From NCBI GenBank assembly GCA_041483895.1, contig JBGPGO010000001.1, forward strand, positions 192,001 to 256,000: a DNA stretch of 64,000 nucleotides, read 5' to 3'. The notes beneath the pieces are model-generated. The model worked only from the letters and a program-made list of their open reading frames with translations, had not been told where the DNA came from and searched no databases. This DNA is from Fimbriimonadia bacterium (lineage in GTDB: Bacteria > Armatimonadota > Fimbriimonadia > Fimbriimonadales > JABRVX01). A program made the translations under genes and the position numbers. Of this stretch, positions 3,159-14,454 are shown one piece after another; positions within the stretch are counted from its first letter, which is position 1; each line of letters starts with the position of its first letter.

Positions 3159-3610
3159 ATGGCAATTGAACTCAAAGTTACAGAAGCTGCCCCAGCCGGA
3201 CCGGATGCGCTGGAGTTCCTTCTGAAGTCCAAAAGGAGGGAGGTCACGAGGCTGGCCTACCAGCGGGACCTGCGGCTGTTCTTCCGGGTCTTCGCCCGAA
3301 GCGAGCCGACGCCGCAGACGATCGGCGCATTCTTCAAGCTGAACACGCCCGGCGTCGTTCGGGCGATGCTCACCTTCAAGATGCAGCAGATAGAGCAAGG
3401 CGTGGCCGAAGTCACGCTCAACCGTCGTCTGACCGCCATCCGCTCGCTTCTGAGCGTGGCAAGGCAGCTTGGCCTGACGGAAGTCAACCCGCAAGGCCTA
3501 GTGCCGGGCGAGAAGACGATGCAGTACCGCGACACGAGAGGCGTCGACAAGGACGCTGCGGCCGCGATGCTCCTTCTTCCCGATACCTCAATGCTCAAAG
3601 GGAACCGCAG
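3159..3610 (+). pseudogene. Tyrosine recombinase (Xer/integrase family): N-terminal core-binding domain only, catalytic domain deleted
   Basis: AGGAGG RBS; TRLAYQRDLRLF..TLNRRLTAIRSLL..NP..YRDTRGV..PDTSMLKGNR; similarity stops where RD-x-A-I-L and the R-H-x-x-R-H-Y residues should start. Confidence 0.75.
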
Positions 3611-3629
3611 CGCGGCGAGCCTCAGTGTA

Positions 3630-3930
3630 AGCAGCGGAGAGAACCGGGCCCACTTGGGCGGAGCAAATATGTACCACTGGACGGCGCTATGCGCTGATGC
3701 TGGAACTGGAGCAAATCAACCTGCCGCTGGAGTATTTGGACACGTTCCCTGCCAGGTTCGAGGCGATCACGGCTGCGAACATCCCGCACGTCGCGCGATA
3801 ATATCCGGCAAAGAACCGCATCCAGCTGATTTCAGCAGTGGAACGCAAACAGATCGAGGCGGGAGTGCGCAAATACGGGGCTACCGAAATCGTTTTGGAC
3901 GGCCAGCTTGACGAGAGAAGAAACCGCTGA
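3630..3930 (+). pseudogene. Degenerate C-terminal fragment of an M16-family peptidase
   Basis: Frame from 3661 reads LPLEYLDTFPARFEAITAANIPHVAR*YP..KQIEAGVRKYG, like M16 C-termini; in-frame TAA at 3799. Confidence 0.5.
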
Positions 3931-3981
3931 GGAGCGGAGGTTATTGACAATCGCACGATTTGGAGGTAGATCTCATTGTAA

Positions 3982-5589
3982 ATGCTGCCCCCAGAAATTA
4001 GGACGCTGAATCCGCGCGAAATTGATCGTCTCGTCGAATGCTTCAATCGATACGAGTATGTGGTTCCGTTTATTGGAGCGGGCATGTCGGTTCCTTTCGG
4101 ATATCCAAGCTGGACAGGATTTTTGCGCGGCGCCGCAAAGGACGCCAACCGATCTGCGGAAGTAGCGAACTCAATTGCAAAAGGCATGTTCGACGACGCT
4201 GCCCAAATTATTTGCGATGCGTTCGGGCAGTCGGTATTCGACGACCTTATCACGCAGACATTTGGCGACAACGGAAGCAAGGCCAAAGGAGCGGAACCAC
4301 TCGTCGTTGTACCGCACATTACCACTGGACTTGTGATCACTACGAATTTTGACTCGAAGACTAAGGACACGTTCGCCGAGAACGATGCACCGCTTGAATT
4401 GGCACGGGGGCCCGCGATCGATACCGTAGTTGGGGCCAGCCTCGCCCGCAAGCCGTTGCTTTGGCATGTCCACGGGACTGCGGATGAACGTAGCAACCGG
4501 GTGGTGACAGCATCGGATTATCGTAGGGCATATCCCGACGAGCGGCCAGATAAAACGATCGGGGTCGCTGTCGATTGGCTGCTCGAAAGAGTGTTCGTCT
4601 CCCAAAGAATGCTCTTCCTTGGCTGCAGTTTGCTGACCGATCGCACTGTGCAAGCACTTCAAAATGCGCATGGCAAAAACCCAGTCCGCCAGCATTTCGC
4701 CATTCTGGAAGAGCCTGTTGATAGCGATAAGATTCACCGGACCCGTCAGCTCGGCGAAATGGGAATTTGTCCAATCTGGTACCCAGCCGGCAGGTACGAC
4801 CTCATTTATCCCACACTGAGATGGATCGAAAGCAACACAGCAGAGAGCATCGCACACGACAGACCTTCCGCCAGACGGCAGTTTGCCATCGTCACATATG
4901 ACGCAACGCCATCATCAGTAATTGCTCATCCGGGTTGCCTCGACCTCCGCGCCCCATTTGCGTCCGGGCCACTGGCGGATGAGGCCGCTTGGACGGACCT
5001 GGTGGCGGGGCCAGTATCGCGATTTGCTCGGACCATGTGCGAAGAGGCTTCGGCGTGTGTCGTCCAATTGAATTGCAGGCTTGCAGTCGCATTCTGTTTA
5101 GGTACGAACGTCCCAATTGGTACGGGCATAAACATCGTAATTCTGCAACAGGGCATCAGCGGACCGCGAGAGTGGTCCCCCAGATGGGGAGAGGATTCTG
5201 GTCTACGGTGGAATATTACTAAAGCTGCCGTAGGTTCGGGGCAGGACATCGTTCTATCCGTGCATGCAGGACACGGTACCCTGAAGGAGCCGCCTGAATT
5301 CGCGAGTGCAGAGATCCCCAGTGCTGGTACCTTGATCGAAGCACAAATGGAGAATACAAACGCTACTGCCGCGGTGTCCAGCGGGGCGCACGCGTACGCC
5401 CTCGCCCAAGAGTTGATTCGAATTGTGTCCGACACTAGGTCAGCCAAAACCAGCACCCATATTTTCTATAAGGGACCCATTGCACTCGCGTTTTTCCTCG
5501 GTCAACTACATAAGAGCTTAGGGCCAGGCATCTTTTACGAGTATAATTCACCGGAAGCGAGCTACGTACCCGCAATACATTTTCCGTAG
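3982..5589 (+). CDS. CBASS effector: SIR2-like NADase domain fused to SAVED cyclic-oligonucleotide sensor
   Basis: PFIGAGMS..PSW, ITTNFD, HVHG, LFLGCSL (SIR2-like); C-terminal HIFYKGPIALAFFLGQ..YEY..YVPA (SAVED); first gene of the CD-NTase operon. Confidence 0.85.
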   Translation: MLPPEIRTLNPREIDRLVECFNRYEYVVPFIGAGMSVPFGYPSWTGFLRGAAKDANRSAEVANSIAKGMFDDAAQIICDAFGQSVFDDLITQTFGDNGSKAKGAEPLVVVPHITTGLVITTNFDSKTKDTFAENDAPLELARGPAIDTVVGASLARKPLLWHVHGTADERSNRVVTASDYRRAYPDERPDKTIGVAVDWLLERVFVSQRMLFLGCSLLTDRTVQALQNAHGKNPVRQHFAILEEPVDSDKIHRTRQLGEMGICPIWYPAGRYDLIYPTLRWIESNTAESIAHDRPSARRQFAIVTYDATPSSVIAHPGCLDLRAPFASGPLADEAAWTDLVAGPVSRFARTMCEEASACVVQLNCRLAVAFCLGTNVPIGTGINIVILQQGISGPREWSPRWGEDSGLRWNITKAAVGSGQDIVLSVHAGHGTLKEPPEFASAEIPSAGTLIEAQMENTNATAAVSSGAHAYALAQELIRIVSDTRSAKTSTHIFYKGPIALAFFLGQLHKSLGPGIFYEYNSPEASYVPAIHFP

Positions 5590-5618
5590 TGCCGGAAACG
5601 GCGGAAGTAGGTGAATAG

Positions 5619-6695
5619 ATGGATCTCCCGTACTATTTTAGTGAATTCGTGTCGCGGATCCGACTGGCCGACATGGCTAACTATGTCGACGCCCATAAAA
5701 TTCTTCGTGATCGGCTGAAAGCGTACCCATCGCTCAAGGAAATCTATATTTCTACGTTCCTCCAGGGCAGCTACCGCAGACATACGGCGATCCGCACGGT
5801 GGCCGGGAAAAGTGCCGACATAGATGTCGTCGTTGTCACGAACCTAAGGGAAGAAGAAAAGACACCGACTCAGGCGATGGCCATCTTTCGGCCTTTTCTC
5901 GACGAATACTATTCGGGGCAATGGCGTTATCAGGACCGCTCGATTCTCGTTAGTCTTCCCGACCTGGAACTCGATTTGGTCGTGACCTCAGCGCCATCGG
6001 AATCTGCCAAAGCGGTATTGTTGAGCGATCCAGTCATTTCATCGTTCGATGTCACTGATGACAGGCACGATGCATTTTGGAGCAACATTGGTGGCAGCAA
6101 CGGTATTTCTGCCGCAGAATCAGCCACGTGGAAATTAGATCCTTTGCGGATTCCAGATCGTAGTGCCAAAGAATGGACATCAACTCATCCGTTGGACCAA
6201 ATCGCATGGACATGGAAGAAGAATAAGGGCTGCGATTTCAACTATTTAGGTGTTGTTAAGATATTGAAGTGGTGGCGTCGAATCACTTACGACGAGCCCA
6301 AATATCCGAAAGGTTACCCCCTGGAGCATATCACTGGGTATTGCTGTCCGGACTCCATCAACGGGCTGGCCCAAGGCATCACCGAGACACTTGAATCGAT
6401 TGTGGCCACGTTCGCGGTAGATTTCCGGTTCGGCAAGGTGCCCGTGCTGCCGGATCATGGGGTTCCGGCCCACAACGTGCTTAAGCGGCTCACTGGAGAG
6501 GATTTTGCAACGTTTTACGAAAAGGCAAGCGATGCAGCAGCGAAAGCGCGCCTCGCGCTAGATGAACCAGACAAGGACAAGAGCATCCAATATTGGCGAG
6601 AACTGCTCGGTGATGAGTTTGGCGAGGATCCCGACGAATCTGAACGCATTCTTGCACCGGCGGTGGCGAAACCCAGAACGGAGCGATTTGCCTAG
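5619..6695 (+). CDS. CD-NTase (cGAS/DncV-like cyclic oligonucleotide synthase), CdnD-like
   Basis: FLQGSYRRHTAI..DIDVV, ELDLV, LRIPDR, W..THP, VKILKWWR, PKGYPLE; tail ends in RFA. Confidence 0.9.
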   Translation: MDLPYYFSEFVSRIRLADMANYVDAHKILRDRLKAYPSLKEIYISTFLQGSYRRHTAIRTVAGKSADIDVVVVTNLREEEKTPTQAMAIFRPFLDEYYSGQWRYQDRSILVSLPDLELDLVVTSAPSESAKAVLLSDPVISSFDVTDDRHDAFWSNIGGSNGISAAESATWKLDPLRIPDRSAKEWTSTHPLDQIAWTWKKNKGCDFNYLGVVKILKWWRRITYDEPKYPKGYPLEHITGYCCPDSINGLAQGITETLESIVATFAVDFRFGKVPVLPDHGVPAHNVLKRLTGEDFATFYEKASDAAAKARLALDEPDKDKSIQYWRELLGDEFGEDPDESERILAPAVAKPRTERFA

Positions 6696-6699
6696 GCAC

Positions 6700-8493
6700 G
6701 TGTCCTTTGAAATTCCAAAGCCGATACAGATGGGGTTGCGCGAAGCCGACGGGAGCGTGCCCCAAGTTCACCTCGTACCACCAGTCATCGCTGTTCAAGA
6801 AGGCACTTTCGCCCTTGAATTTAGGATCATATCAGAACACACGAGCCAGTTCGTGCCCGAATCGACGACGTGGTACGCAATTTTGCAAGAAGACTACCCA
6901 TACGGCAAAATCGACATTTTTCCGGCAAAGGAAGGCGGGATTACTTGCACCTTTCCGCATCAGCAGTTCAACGGTCCTAATACCTCCAGCGATTATCCGT
7001 GGCGAAGCGGCAACATTTGCGTTACGGAAACCGGATATCGCATCGGTCGCGAGGTCATTCTTGCAGAGCCATTCAATAGTAAACGTCTAGCATGGCATCT
7101 TGAACAGGCGAGAGACTGGATCCAATGTGCCGCAAGAGGGCTTCTGTCGCAACCAGGAGACCCTTTTGAATTGCCGGACTTTCCTCGGTCCGAAAACGCG
7201 ACGTCCTTTGCATATTGGGAAGACCGTACGACCTTTTCTGCATGGTCAGAGATTAACGAGGTCTGCGGTCTAGCTGAACTGTGTTCTGTTCCCGGGAATA
7301 GTAGCATCCGCGCAATTAAGTCATTCAATTCGGGTCGCGACACAATTGATCTCAGACCACCCTGGGGAAAGTTTCTGAAGGACAGAACACCAACGCAAGC
7401 CGCAATATGGCTCCGATTCCCAAGCGTTCCTATTCTCCCACCTTGGCAAGTTCCTGTGACAATCGGACAGCTCATCGATGCCGGCAACGTCGTCGGACTA
7501 GATGTCACTGATCAAGTTAAGGCAGCGATGCGCCACTGCCCAGCCTCATCTATTACATCATTCCTCGTCGGCATCCCGATACCCGAGTATTTTGGCGGAG
7601 TGCCGATTCAGTGGCATTGGCAGGCGATGGAGTTCGGGCCGTCGCTGCTTGATACCCAATCCGCGAAGAGAGTGAGACGCCGAGCCACCTTCTACAAAAG
7701 GGATATCGAGACATTGACGGAGAGGTCAAGAGGTATCGCGTGGTTTCCTTCAACAAACTGGTCTAAGGATCAGCTAATGGTGCGGGGTGCCATAGAGGCT
7801 ATTCAGGATAAGTTTATCCTGGTAATTGGCGTTGGCGCGATCGGGTCTGTAGTCGCTGAACTCCTCGTACGCGGAGGTTCGAAACGAGTAATGCTGGCTG
7901 ATGCAGAACGGTTCACTGTTGGCAATCTCGTTCGGCACATCGCTTCGATCCCACATGTTATGTTTCAAAAATCCATTGCGATGGAGCATCGTTACAATAA
8001 CACAGTTCCCTATGCGAATGTCGACAGTTCTATTAGCCGATTTCGAGCCAATGGAGCAGACTTCCCCGGGCACGCTCCAAATCTCGACCTAATTGTCGAT
8101 TGCACAGGAGAGGACGCCGTCATCGAGGGAGTCCAATTGTCCGCGTTGGAGGGGGATCTCCCATTCGTATCCATTTCTCTTGGTTGGGAAGCCAAGAGGT
8201 TGTTTCTGTACAGCGCACCCAAGCAATTGATCAATGTCGAGTGGTTTCAAGAAAAGTGGAACGAGGTTACCGAAGACGAGCGCAAGGTTCGCCGCAGAGA
8301 GGACTTTACAATGGAAGGTATTGGCTGTTGGCATCCGGCGTTTCCCGCACCCATTCATCGCGTTTGGTCGTTGGCTGCTCTTTCCGTTGTAGCCCTCGAA
8401 AAACTGCTCATTGAGGGCATCAATAACCCAGGTTTCCATGTGATCGAATTTGAAGCGGAAAGCGGCTCAGCATTGATCACCAGGATTCCGTGA
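6700..8493 (+). CDS. cap2: CBASS Cap2 E2-E1 (ThiF-like) ligase
   Basis: E2-like YPY..TFPHQ..GNICV; ThiF Rossmann VIGVGAIGS, GNLVRH, DCTG; E1 catalytic EGIGCWHPAFPA; GTG start just after the CD-NTase stop (ORF track starts at 6562). Confidence 0.85.
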   Translation: MSFEIPKPIQMGLREADGSVPQVHLVPPVIAVQEGTFALEFRIISEHTSQFVPESTTWYAILQEDYPYGKIDIFPAKEGGITCTFPHQQFNGPNTSSDYPWRSGNICVTETGYRIGREVILAEPFNSKRLAWHLEQARDWIQCAARGLLSQPGDPFELPDFPRSENATSFAYWEDRTTFSAWSEINEVCGLAELCSVPGNSSIRAIKSFNSGRDTIDLRPPWGKFLKDRTPTQAAIWLRFPSVPILPPWQVPVTIGQLIDAGNVVGLDVTDQVKAAMRHCPASSITSFLVGIPIPEYFGGVPIQWHWQAMEFGPSLLDTQSAKRVRRRATFYKRDIETLTERSRGIAWFPSTNWSKDQLMVRGAIEAIQDKFILVIGVGAIGSVVAELLVRGGSKRVMLADAERFTVGNLVRHIASIPHVMFQKSIAMEHRYNNTVPYANVDSSISRFRANGADFPGHAPNLDLIVDCTGEDAVIEGVQLSALEGDLPFVSISLGWEAKRLFLYSAPKQLINVEWFQEKWNEVTEDERKVRRREDFTMEGIGCWHPAFPAPIHRVWSLAALSVVALEKLLIEGINNPGFHVIEFEAESGSALITRIP

Positions 8494-9002
8494 GCGTGAA
8501 CTACGACCAATTGGAATTCGTCGGCAAGATCTCTACAGTCCTCGTCATCGTCTCATCCACCGCACTCTCGAAAATGCTAATGGAATGCTCCGTAGACCCA
8601 GATATTGAGACCGGAGGTGTTCTGCTGGGCCGGTTTCGGACAAAGGACGCCGCAGTTCTTGTGAAGGAAGCCACCGGTTCCCCAGCCGATTCGGCTAAGT
8701 CTCCTGGGGAGTTCATACGAGGAACTGAAGGATTAGACGATACCTTGCAACGAGCATATAATTGTTCACTTCAATATGTCGGTGAATGGCATTTCCACCG
8801 CACGGCAGAACCCAGGCCGAGCGATCGTGACCGGCGCACAATGATGGGCATAACTAAGAGCGATAACTACCACATGCTATATCCGATCCTAGCGATCGTT
8901 TCAAACAAAAAGGCTTGTTGGACCATTGGCATCTACCGCTTCGAACGGAGTGGAATGTGCGAGTGCTGTGGTACAGCATTATTCGCCACTACTGGGATAT
9001 AG
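8490..9002 (+). CDS. cap3: CBASS Cap3 JAB/MPN peptidase
   Basis: ETGGVLLG and YVGEWHFH..PSDRD JAMM motif; overlaps the cap2 stop. Confidence 0.85.
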   Translation: MSVNYDQLEFVGKISTVLVIVSSTALSKMLMECSVDPDIETGGVLLGRFRTKDAAVLVKEATGSPADSAKSPGEFIRGTEGLDDTLQRAYNCSLQYVGEWHFHRTAEPRPSDRDRRTMMGITKSDNYHMLYPILAIVSNKKACWTIGIYRFERSGMCECCGTALFATTGI

Positions 9003-9332: not shown

Positions 9333-10328
9333 CTATTGTTCGGGATGCGGAAGCCTGACAGCGGCGTCCGTCCGAGTGAATTCCTCCCAGTCTTCATCGC
9401 TGATCTTGTAATTCTCACGTTTCTCGACGTACTGGCGAATCTTGTCCATATCCACCACGTCATGGTGAACTCCAACCCCGACAGGGTCGACGGGCTGTTG
9501 AGCCGCACTTCCCGAAGAGCTGGACAGCTGATAAGCGGCAAGCCCGAGGCCCGTTAGCTCCTCATCGTACTGTTGGCATTCGGGACGAGTTTTGAACTTA
9601 GTCGAAGATTCGATCTCTACCAGCCATTTCCTAATCCTCGAAAAAGCCGTATGCATCCGGTGTTTCATAGGCTTTCTATCGTCGGGATTTTCGACCAATT
9701 CACCTTCTTTCGCAAACATCAGTACAGTTTCTCGTTCCATCTCGGAGGGTTTGACGCAATGCAGGGCAAACGCCTTCAGGTTCCTTTGTTCGGCCCCCGT
9801 GAGAGTCGGTCGGGGGCGACCGTGCACTAAGGGCACGAGCAATTCGCCGTGGTTGCCACGCTCATTCTTAAGATCTGCGCGTAGCGTGATGAGGGCAGAC
9901 TCGACCGCCTTGACTTCGCGAAGAGCATCTTCCACGCATTGAAGAGCGGTTTGCCAGGGTTGTTTGAATAGACGCTTTGCCAATCGAGTCGGCAGGTTCT
10001 CGGCTAGTTTCACCACTGCTTCGCGCTTTTTGCAAGTGGAGTAGCTGATGCGCGTCCAAGCGCTTGCTTTCGAGAATCCTTCTTCCCGCAGATCCTCTAA
10101 TTTCCGGAGCCATGCAAACCACATCCGCACCAAGCATTTTGGCCCAATCTCGTAGGGCCCACCGATCTCTTCGATGTCGAGAAACCGGCTACGGTTCCCG
10201 TCTCTCGCGTGACGACGGAGATTCAATGCCTCGAGTTGTTGTTGCAGACGATTGTCCGTAGCAACGATCAAATGGTGCATCAAGAAGGCGAGCTTGATGT
10301 CGTCTTGTTGGCTCTTCGATATCTCCAT
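9333..10328 (-). CDS. Hypothetical protein (island-borne)
   Basis: 331-aa charged ORF filling the gap between CBASS and the recombinases; no motif recognised. Confidence 0.55.
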   Translation of the reverse strand: MEISKSQQDDIKLAFLMHHLIVATDNRLQQQLEALNLRRHARDGNRSRFLDIEEIGGPYEIGPKCLVRMWFAWLRKLEDLREEGFSKASAWTRISYSTCKKREAVVKLAENLPTRLAKRLFKQPWQTALQCVEDALREVKAVESALITLRADLKNERGNHGELLVPLVHGRPRPTLTGAEQRNLKAFALHCVKPSEMERETVLMFAKEGELVENPDDRKPMKHRMHTAFSRIRKWLVEIESSTKFKTRPECQQYDEELTGLGLAAYQLSSSSGSAAQQPVDPVGVGVHHDVVDMDKIRQYVEKRENYKISDEDWEEFTRTDAAVRLPHPEQ

Positions 10329-12883: not shown

Positions 12884-14408
12884 CGGAAAATCGAGGCGCT
12901 CCACTGCCGTGATCTATGCGCGCGTTAGTTCCAAGGAGCAAAACGACGAAGGCTACAGCATTCCCGCTCAGCTTCGGCTCCTGCGGGATTATGCGCGCGA
13001 GAAGGGCATTGAGGTCGTTGAAGAATTCACGGATGCTGAAACGGCAAAGCAAGCCGGTCGAACTTCGTTTGCCAAGATGCTTCAATTCATCAAGGCAAAA
13101 TCTATCTCCACGATACTTGTTGAGAAGACCGATCGTCTCTACCGAAACTTTGCCGACTTCGTCAAGGTCGACGAATTGGGGTCCGAACTCCATTTTGTTA
13201 AAGAAGGTCAGGTCATCAGCGTCGAATCGCGGAGCGCCGATAAGTTCATGCATTCGATTCGGGTGTGCATGGCGAAGAACTACGTCGACAACTTAAGCGA
13301 AGAGATTCGCAAGGGCATGGCAGAGAAGGCGAGGCAAGGAATCTATCCGACCCACGCGCCCCTTGGCTACCTCAATGCTCCCGACGGTCCGAGGAAGAAG
13401 ATCGTACTGGATCCGGATCGAGGAGTACTCGTCACTCGCCTCTTCGAAGCCTATGCAAGCGGCTCATACTCTCTGACGCAATTGACACAGTTCGCTCGCG
13501 AGATCGGATTGGTGACAAAGAAGCATCACCAGGTGCAAAGGAGCAACATCGCCCTGATGCTCCAGAGCCCTGTCTATTCCGGCCGAATCGTATGGAACGG
13601 CGAGAGCTACCCAGGCACCCACACACCGCTTGTCGACAAGCTGACCTTCGATCGAGTCCAGGACATACTGCACGGCCGGCGCAGTAAGGCCGGGTTTGGC
13701 CATAGGGAGTTTGCATTCAAAGGGCTCGTATATTGCCGATGCGGCGCGGCCATGACCGGCGACATTAAGAAAGGGAAATACATCTACTACCGATGCAATG
13801 GGCGCAAAGGGCTGTGCGACAAGCCGAGTGTGAAAGAAGAGGTTTTCATTGACCACATCCGGGATCTGCTCTCAAGGCTGTCGTTGCCTCCTGAGATATT
13901 TGAATGGCTGAGGACGGCGCTCAAATCAAGCTTGGACGACGAACAACGATTTCGCCAACTAGAAGACGAGCGGATGGAAACGAACGCAGCACAGATCAAA
14001 AAGCGCCTCGAGACGCTCTACCTCGACAAGATTCAAGGCGATGTGTCAGCCGAGTTTTATCGCGACACCCGGCAGAAGTGGGAAGAGGAACTAGACGATA
14101 TTCGGGCCCGCCAGGCTGCGATGAGCCGGACTGAGGGCGCATATTACGACGATGGACTTCAATTGCTCGAACTCGCGAGAACAGCCGCAGACAGGTACGA
14201 ATCGGCCTCCGTGAGCGAGAAACGGGAACTCTTACAATGTATCTGTTCGAACTGCATCTTTGACGGCAGCACCATCTCCGTCAACCTGCGAAAACCGTTT
14301 GATTTGCTCCTAAAAGCGCCCGAATTCGGCAGCGTGCCTAATGCCGCAAAATGCCCAGATTCCCCAGCAAATCAAGATTGGTGGAGGCTAGCGGACTCGA
14401 ACCGCTGA
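12858..14408 (+). CDS. Large serine recombinase (integrase) adjacent to tRNA-Ala
   Basis: YARVSSKEQ, DRLYR, APLGY, CRCG..YYRC; last 10 codons overlap the tRNA on the opposite strand. Confidence 0.9.
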   Translation: MKMGRTSSNGKSRRSTAVIYARVSSKEQNDEGYSIPAQLRLLRDYAREKGIEVVEEFTDAETAKQAGRTSFAKMLQFIKAKSISTILVEKTDRLYRNFADFVKVDELGSELHFVKEGQVISVESRSADKFMHSIRVCMAKNYVDNLSEEIRKGMAEKARQGIYPTHAPLGYLNAPDGPRKKIVLDPDRGVLVTRLFEAYASGSYSLTQLTQFAREIGLVTKKHHQVQRSNIALMLQSPVYSGRIVWNGESYPGTHTPLVDKLTFDRVQDILHGRRSKAGFGHREFAFKGLVYCRCGAAMTGDIKKGKYIYYRCNGRKGLCDKPSVKEEVFIDHIRDLLSRLSLPPEIFEWLRTALKSSLDDEQRFRQLEDERMETNAAQIKKRLETLYLDKIQGDVSAEFYRDTRQKWEEELDDIRARQAAMSRTEGAYYDDGLQLLELARTAADRYESASVSEKRELLQCICSNCIFDGSTISVNLRKPFDLLLKAPEFGSVPNAAKCPDSPANQDWWRLADSNR

Positions 14409-14454
14409 CCTGTTGCATGCAAAGCAACTGCTCTCCCAACTGAGCTAAGCCCCC
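14379..14454 (-). tRNA. tRNA-Ala(TGC)
   Basis: GGGGGCTTAGCTCAGTTGGGAGAGC..TTTGCAT..GGTTCGAGTCC..CTCCACCA; G3:U70 pair; encoded CCA. Confidence 0.97.

Follow-up and report, generated by a model that had tools for sequence, protein, structure and literature searches.

Can a sirtuin act as the killing enzyme of an antiphage signaling system that relies on cyclic oligonucleotides (CBASS)? The question is raised by four tightly linked plus-strand genes that inspection of open reading frames places at 3982–9002 of a 64,000-nt stretch of DNA from a Fimbriimonadia bacterium (hereafter the window). They encode a fusion of SIR2 and SAVED domains (the effector), a nucleotidyltransferase resembling cGAS and DncV (CD-NTase, the cyclase), and the proteins Cap2 and Cap3. 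A sequence-only reading of this DNA had described a linked quartet with intact motifs and assigned it to type II CBASS. Both claims hold up: open reading frames, Pfam, PADLOC and the named residues agree on the quartet, and the cyclase, Cap2, Cap3 and the adjacent SAVED effector all pass as parts of a type II system in Pfam, PADLOC and alignments. We regard it as practically certain that the locus is a type II CBASS on the Enterobacter cloacae CdnD chassis, with an immune-type sirtuin taking the place of the Cap4 nuclease. Its genes and domains are as follows.

3982–5589, plus strand: SIR2-SAVED effector gene, 535 aa, defined by Pfam domains and structure matches
3982–4845, plus strand: SIR2 domain, effector residues 1–288, with GAGMS at 32–36, N122, H164 and D220; resembles ThsA, KomC and DSR2
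4867–5583, plus strand: SAVED domain, effector residues 296–534, EcCap4 subfamily, with drifted T305, G329, R366, A368 and G380
5619–6695, plus strand: E. cloacae CdnD-type CD-NTase with 358 aa, ending in ...KPRTERFA
6700–8493 (longest frame from 6562), plus strand: Cap2 E2-linker-E1 ligase, both catalytic cysteines aligned with those of Enterobacter Cap2
8490–9002, plus strand: Cap3 JAB protease, 170 aa, with a GTG start that overlaps the Cap2 stop

Integrity of the operon

The effector and cyclase genes are 29 nt apart. In its longest frame, starting at 6562, the Cap2 gene would share 134 nt with the cyclase gene. A GTG at 6700 is the likely start, giving a protein of 597 aa that fits the 600-aa Enterobacter Cap2. 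Contigs from four public sediment runs showed 0 letter differences inside the four genes wherever these were covered. One 1057-bp contig (4735–5791, 0 differences) runs from SIR2 through SAVED into the cyclase, and another covers 5728–8440. Because these contigs bridge both effector domains and the cyclase, an assembly chimera or frameshift is ruled out. The source sample may itself be among the four runs, and the match therefore excludes gross assembly error without proving independence. No second match to SAVED, the cyclase, Cap2 or Cap3 was found elsewhere in the assembly.

The N-terminal half resembles immune SIR2 enzymes

The sequence-only reading had seen a SIR2 domain with the motifs TTNFD (N122) and HVHG (H164), and both Pfam and the predicted fold bear this out. 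Pfam SIR2_2 matched residues 117–265 at 65.7 bits (cut-off 24.5). We modeled the effector with AlphaFold2 from an alignment of 6 sequences (predicted local distance difference test score 80, predicted template-modeling score 0.68). In this model, residues 1–288 superposed on BcThsA (8BTO) with a Z score of 23.9 and a root-mean-square deviation of 3.2 Å over 262 aligned residues, and the same half matched KomC at Z 22.7 and DSR2 at Z 21.6; Foldseek concurred. Because ThsA, KomC and DSR2 are the best structural matches, the SIR2 half is predicted to be of the immune NADase type and not of the deacetylase type.

The catalytic residues agree with this assignment. N122, H164, G165, G214 and D220 are present in all 226 SIR2 relatives gathered by similarity. 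N122 aligns with a position that reads TTAYD in the ThsA chain of 8BTO and TTNYD in 6LHX; the Ala of 8BTO we take to be a catalytic mutant. His and Asn mutants of DSR2 and KomC score below wild type against the family profile. D194 of KomC is conserved in NADase-type SIR2 proteins and absent from deacetylases (PMC13454610; here and below, statements drawn from cited papers refer to the accessible part of the source). The spacing between D220 and the GxS motif is one residue longer than that of the Asp in ThsA and KomC; judged from the alignment, D220 is probably the counterpart of D194.

Two other classifications were considered and rejected. A canonical deacetylase sirtuin does not agree with best matches that are immune SIR2 proteins, and a Thoeris system does not agree with an effector that has no SLOG domain and ends in SAVED.

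The C-terminal half adopts a SAVED fold

The sequence-only reading had staked its case beforehand on the C-terminal part adopting a SAVED fold, and this is the fold predicted. Pfam SAVED matched residues 354–533 at 70 bits (cut-off 26.2), and the NCBIfam cut-off was also exceeded. Residues 296–534 of the predicted structure superposed on EcCap4 (7YIA) with a Z score of 26.8 and a root-mean-square deviation of 2.5 Å over 235 residues. E. cloacae Cap4 was also the best solved relative of this half by phmmer (1e-16). Matches to Cap4 were confined to effector residues 284–534; residues 1–288 are SIR2 and hold no restriction-type nuclease domain.

The cyclase, Cap2 and Cap3 follow the E. cloacae system

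The CD-NTase matched Pfam SMODS at 74 bits and the PADLOC CBASS cyclase model at 1e-127. Its GS..DID..D motif corresponds to S51, D67, D69 and D119, and the catalytic triad D67, D69 and D119 aligns with D69, D71 and D121 of EcCdnD. The closest solved relative is E. cloacae CdnD (7LJL, 2.5e-82), and identity to Enterobacter CdnD is 42%. Seventeen residues of EcCdnD have been named as metal or nucleotide contacts (PMC8096243). By hand mapping on alignments, 16 of these 17 are identical in the CD-NTase (Q49, S51, R54, D67, D69, R107, D119, T123, D180, R181, T189, Q194, Y233, D279, V287 and R290); the sole exception is R204 of EcCdnD, which contacts via its backbone and is S188 here. Because these contacts are kept, 3'3'3'-cyclic AMP-AMP-GMP (cAAG) is the likeliest product that the sequence suggests. 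Pro16 of EcCdnD, linked to constitutive activity (PMC8096243), is replaced by Leu.

The small-residue RFA tail described by the sequence-only reading is confirmed by translation and is the same as the E. cloacae RFA tail: KPRTERFA matches KPAEPQKTGRFA of the E. cloacae cyclase (10.1101/2022.03.31.486616). Cap2 exceeded the Pfam cut-off for ThiF and matched the PADLOC E1-E2 model at 2e-149. In the alignment its C153 (in GNIC) falls on C109, and its C589 (in GCWHP) on C548, of Enterobacter Cap2, the cysteines being those given in 10.1101/2022.03.31.486616. E. cloacae Cap2 (7TO3) is its best solved relative (2.2e-66), and it is 28% identical to Cap2 of an Enterobacter plasmid. Cap3 exceeded the Pfam cut-off for Prok-JAB, matched PADLOC JAB at 8e-34, is 37% identical to Enterobacter Cap3, and has a complete JAB metal-binding motif (E40, H101, H103, S111 and D114). 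An Enterobacter hormaechei plasmid has the identical order Cap4-CdnD-Cap2-Cap3.

SIR2-SAVED proteins form a small family

Six further full-length SIR2-SAVED sequences were found, less than 90% identical to each other. P0055, P0056, P0057 and P0150 came from the full-length alignment, as the four besides the query among the 150 representatives listed; P0054 (cluster mate P0202) was added from 50 non-self matches listed in another search, a further search added 0 from 29, and P0229 came from a separate search. In all 6 of these other fusions tested, both Pfam domains exceeded their cut-offs, and all six keep GAG, TTN, HG, the Asp and the SAVED core. A SIR2 tree of 36 rows (7 fusions and the 29 nearest unfused relatives chosen from 225) placed six of the seven fusions in one clade (98/86), with the effector of this locus as its deepest branch. 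Since six fusions form one SIR2 clade and the motifs are kept, the fusion is old and maintained. P0054, which has an odd composition, lay outside, and a single clade was rejected (approximately unbiased test, p-AU 0.007). In a SAVED tree of 21 rows all seven fusions fell on one side of a branch (92/91), a grouping that long branches make unsure. Together the trees suggest that the fusion was probably made, or re-equipped, twice.

The fusion is rare. Of 54 other SAVED loci, none gave a SIR2 match. Searching JGI data with the SAVED half yielded 17 of these loci, of which three are truncated at the effector N-terminus; 400 genomes of the host's phylum yielded 29; and three other phyla, sampled at 401, 401 and 351 genomes (1,153 in all) with 7–8 candidates scored per genome, yielded 8. 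A GTDB scan with SIR2-side patterns returned 72 SIR2-only loci, and in none did the flanks match SAVED, the cyclase, Cap2 or Cap3. No plasmid record covered 80% of P0001, P0055 or P0054, and phage records and viral scans gave no match to SIR2-SAVED. In the ESM Atlas the whole effector had no match at ≥0.9, and the sensor half of the family led to SAVED clusters only. No RNA data set was among the listed holders of the sequence. The PADLOC matches include no full-length model for a SIR2-SAVED effector. A 554-aa SAVED frame in genome G047, suspected to be P0054, proved to be a TIR-SAVED.

The same SAVED subfamily carries other N-terminal partners, mostly Cap4-like nucleases (judged by eye), along with an alpha/beta-hydrolase and a CHAT-like domain. 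Effector swapping on this sensor is therefore routine. Two loci (L084:4894–6555 and L090:4327–6180) encode alpha/beta-hydrolase-SAVED fusions with a GxSxG motif, the match to DUF676 being weak (L084), and neither has a match to the cyclase, Cap2 or Cap3 of this operon within ~6 kb. Such fusions are another little-described type of SAVED effector. A frame of ~750 aa at L132 (G765:C168) joins a CHAT-like protease region, seen by eye, to a SAVED domain of the Cap4 subfamily. At L105 (G064:C3) a JAB gene lies directly upstream of the SAVED effector instead of downstream, an unusual order.

A proposed mechanism and its alternatives

Domain identities, folds, catalytic residues and gene order come from this analysis; the steps of the mechanism are carried over from characterized relatives. 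Cap2 would activate the C-terminal Ala of the cyclase and conjugate the cyclase to a target, priming it, and Cap3 would remove it. Upon infection the cyclase would make a cyclic trinucleotide, most likely 3'3'3'-cAAG. This nucleotide would be sandwiched between SAVED domains, stacking effectors head to tail as in TIR-SAVED; the clustered SIR2 domains would become an active NADase and NAD+ would collapse, as occurs with ThsA on filament formation. The infected cell would then arrest or die before phage maturation. By analogy with these relatives, we put the probability that the whole sequence, from signal through SAVED stacking and SIR2 NADase to abortive infection, operates at this locus at roughly 0.65. 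Ligand-driven SAVED stacking activates a TIR NADase (10.1101/2022.05.04.490601), and according to a 2026 review, filament formation activates the SIR2 of ThsA, SAVED clusters effectors of whatever chemistry, and a swapped chimera is functional (PMC13434031). The clustering and the chimera support the mechanism and also make the swap unsurprising.

Several observations weigh against the mechanism. We compared the SAVED half with 14 non-SIR2 relatives (13 JGI loci and the plasmid Cap4, two near-duplicate and two truncated JGI rows having been dropped), and it retained 30 of the 47 columns that they conserve. Its RSF, GR and HxS motifs are altered, and the SAVED pocket is the only non-canonical part of the quartet. 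The Arg of RSF is absent from all seven SIR2-SAVED fusions, and only this effector, compared with the 14 relatives and the six other fusions, has Ser changed to T305, Arg or Gln to G329, His to R366 and Ser to A368. The HxS of the relatives thereby reads RxA, and none of 31 other SAVED rows has Ala where Ser is expected. The effector also has a long branch (2.83) in the SAVED tree. Beyond the sensor, the CBASS link of SIR2-SAVED rests on this one locus, the recombinase gene immediately upstream is broken, and a consensus scan gave no plus-strand promoter ahead of the operon; for these last two reasons the island may be decaying.

Since SAVED departs at motifs that its relatives keep (HxS to RxA, and G329), the match between the sensor and the product of its own cyclase is uncertain. 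The unique pocket changes, the long branch and the broken recombinase could indicate that this copy's sensor has drifted. It might then give no answer to its own cyclase product, leaving the cassette weak or inert, or might read a different nucleotide, either some other trinucleotide isomer or a dinucleotide of the host. One TIR-SAVED is able to respond to c-di-AMP from the host when its cyclase is absent (10.1101/2025.06.19.660554). We consider such drift unlikely, with all four frames intact and every catalytic residue present. An Arg like R366 in place of His is natural, as 5 of 11 further SAVEDs read RLS and AbCap4 has R301 in the same column. R301 presumably touches the ligand, although a literature search for this contact found nothing. 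For AbCap4 only the alignment was taken, and the Cap4 score, which is circular with an Enterobacter Cap4 in the alignment, was left unused. The effector also retains Y521 (aligned with W449 of AbCap4), Y528, H470, H493 and the P-x-x-LAF-x-LGQ motif. The aromatic position of Y521 would be equivalent to that of W394 in TIR-SAVED, a ligand-stacking residue that Cap4 conserves as well (10.1101/2022.05.04.490601). Identity to the fusion family is 22–29% for SAVED and 24–35% for SIR2, a difference of a few points that resembles the gap between other members.

It is improbable, at a further remove, that the SIR2 domain is gated by the signal and does not drain bulk NAD+, producing instead an ADP-ribose-type second signal, ADP-ribosylating or deacylating a target, or acting as a scaffold. 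The family profile does match human FAM118B as well, residues near the active site have drifted in the fused clade (TTNYE in 5 of 7 fusions), and the Lys before HG found in 213 of 226 relatives is His in this effector. However, the top structural matches ThsA, KomC and DSR2 are all bulk NADases, the NADase-type Asp is apparently kept, and the operon encodes no partner for a second signal. We give very little credence to SIR2-SAVED being a free module, stand-alone or linked to type III CRISPR, that landed before a CdnD operon by accident: the two alpha/beta-hydrolase-SAVED relatives do lie apart from any such cyclase match, but the effector fills the exact Cap4 slot directly before the cyclase, 14 of the 17 JGI metagenome loci of this SAVED subfamily have a cyclase match alongside, and the operon has no other effector.

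Returning to the SIR2 NADase switched on by SAVED stacking, a broader version extends it to the family. SIR2-SAVED would be an undescribed type of CBASS effector that arose at least twice and in which a CD-NTase signal, by way of SAVED domains stacked head to tail in a filament, turns on a sirtuin NADase, in a geometry unlike that of ThsA, KomC or DSR2. Its remodeled pocket would read the signal differently from Cap4, or would read another nucleotide. We hold this version to be evenly balanced.

The operon lies in a defense island

The operon has a GC content of 0.51–0.55, compared with ~0.58 for the contig, and its DNA was matched in 0 of 30 related genomes. Two flanking features frame it.

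3159–3629, plus strand: truncated tyrosine recombinase, corresponding to residues 1–157 of an intact 315-aa copy in another part of the genome
10799–14454, no strand assigned to the block: two tandem serine recombinase genes and tRNA-Ala (14379–14454, minus strand), the second gene ending inside tRNA-Ala

The first serine recombinase has 694 aa and a C-terminal LuxR-type helix-turn-helix. Together with tRNA-Ala, these recombinases likely mark the integration site of the island; no second att copy (an attL repeat of tRNA-Ala) was found in the assembly. About 9–23 kb upstream of the operon, G000:C1:173023–186659 (L128) encodes a DrmD-like SNF2 helicase (1064 aa), a type IIG restriction-methyltransferase (1679 aa) and a DruE-like DEAH helicase with an MrfA zinc domain (1800 aa). 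The trio makes up a DISARM-like restriction module that belongs to this island as well; the operon thus lies in a defense island.

The tyrosine recombinase has three longer copies at 85–87% nucleotide identity (C4:150749–151774, C7:50314–51249 and C7:66568–67515). By eye, the C4 copy and the operon-side copy are each accompanied by a divergent pair of sigma-factor-like and anti-sigma-like genes. Past the break in the recombinase, 3699–3878 resembles part of a different C1 gene (72%). Beyond the operon, a 331-aa frame at 9333–10328 on the minus strand, convergent on Cap3, had no Pfam, NCBIfam or PADLOC match.

Just ahead of the effector gene, a strong Shine-Dalgarno-like GGAGG at 3962–3966 lies 9 nt upstream of a TTG that is followed by TAA and the effector ATG (TTG TAA ATG; 3962–3984, seen by eye). 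The arrangement is the same in the sediment contigs that cover it. The TTG-TAA may serve as a start-stop element, damping or coupling the translation of a toxic effector, or it may be left over from an earlier start.

Significance and comparison with known systems

NADase-SAVED proteins (TIR) and nucleotide-gated SIR2 proteins (ThsA, KomC) have each been characterized already. The sequence-only reading knew of no experimental characterization of their combination, and our literature search, by exact phrase and related terms, likewise found no description of SIR2-SAVED, with earlier bioinformatic mention in surveys or supplements still possible. The accessible part of PMC10419184 gives the partners of SAVED as HNH, REase, TIR, phosphoesterase and 2TM, and that of PMC10952713 lists SIR2 defense systems without CBASS. 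Neither 'sir2' nor 'sirtuin' occurs in the accessible text of PMC9704534, PMC12669027, 10.1101/2025.06.19.660554 or 10.64898/2026.10.26.761840. On pocket and catalytic residues, PMC8568899, PMC12751052 and PMC11204291 contributed little.

A SIR2 effector on the best-studied CBASS chassis is a predictable modular change, with an effector that is rare and apparently uncharacterized. Because the chemistry of each part is already known, the gain is incremental and not a new principle. If the mechanism is true, sirtuins join the list of CBASS effectors, and the CBASS signal and a Thoeris-type killer, from the two main nucleotide-signaling defense toolkits, are united in one protein. With the cyclase, Cap2, Cap3 and SAVED all close to solved E. 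cloacae proteins, the locus offers a natural experiment, ready to use, for asking whether any enzyme mounted on a SAVED filament can be activated by it. It also bears on how SIR2 domains are activated when they ordinarily depend on dimer or tetramer contacts of their own.

Among known systems, the locus shares with the type II CBASS of E. cloacae (7LJL, 7TO3, 7YIA) its genes and their order, the active site of the cyclase, the RFA tail, both Cap2 cysteines, the JAB motif and the SAVED subfamily. It differs in the effector domain, a Cap4 nuclease there and SIR2 here, and in a SAVED half that has 25% identity to that of E. cloacae Cap4 and changed RSF, GR and HxS motifs. TIR-SAVED of Microbacterium ketosireducens (7QQK) is alike in carrying an NADase N-terminal to SAVED under cyclic-nucleotide control, with the same output predicted here. 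However, TIR and SIR2 are unrelated NADase folds, and its SAVED is distant, matching the fusion family profile at 2e-5. ThsA (SIR2-SLOG), KomC and DSR2 share the SIR2 fold and catalytic Asn and His (Z 20–24), and ThsA and KomC are activated by a nucleotide signal through a filament change (PMC13454610, PMC13434031), a likeness predicted here as well. The sensors differ: SAVED and a CD-NTase signal at this locus, 3' cyclic ADP-ribose via SLOG in ThsA, dITP via KomB in KomC, and a phage tail protein in DSR2. The locus is a member of type II CBASS, neither a Cap4 system nor Thoeris type I, whose effector would by analogy work like TIR-SAVED with a ThsA-type enzyme.

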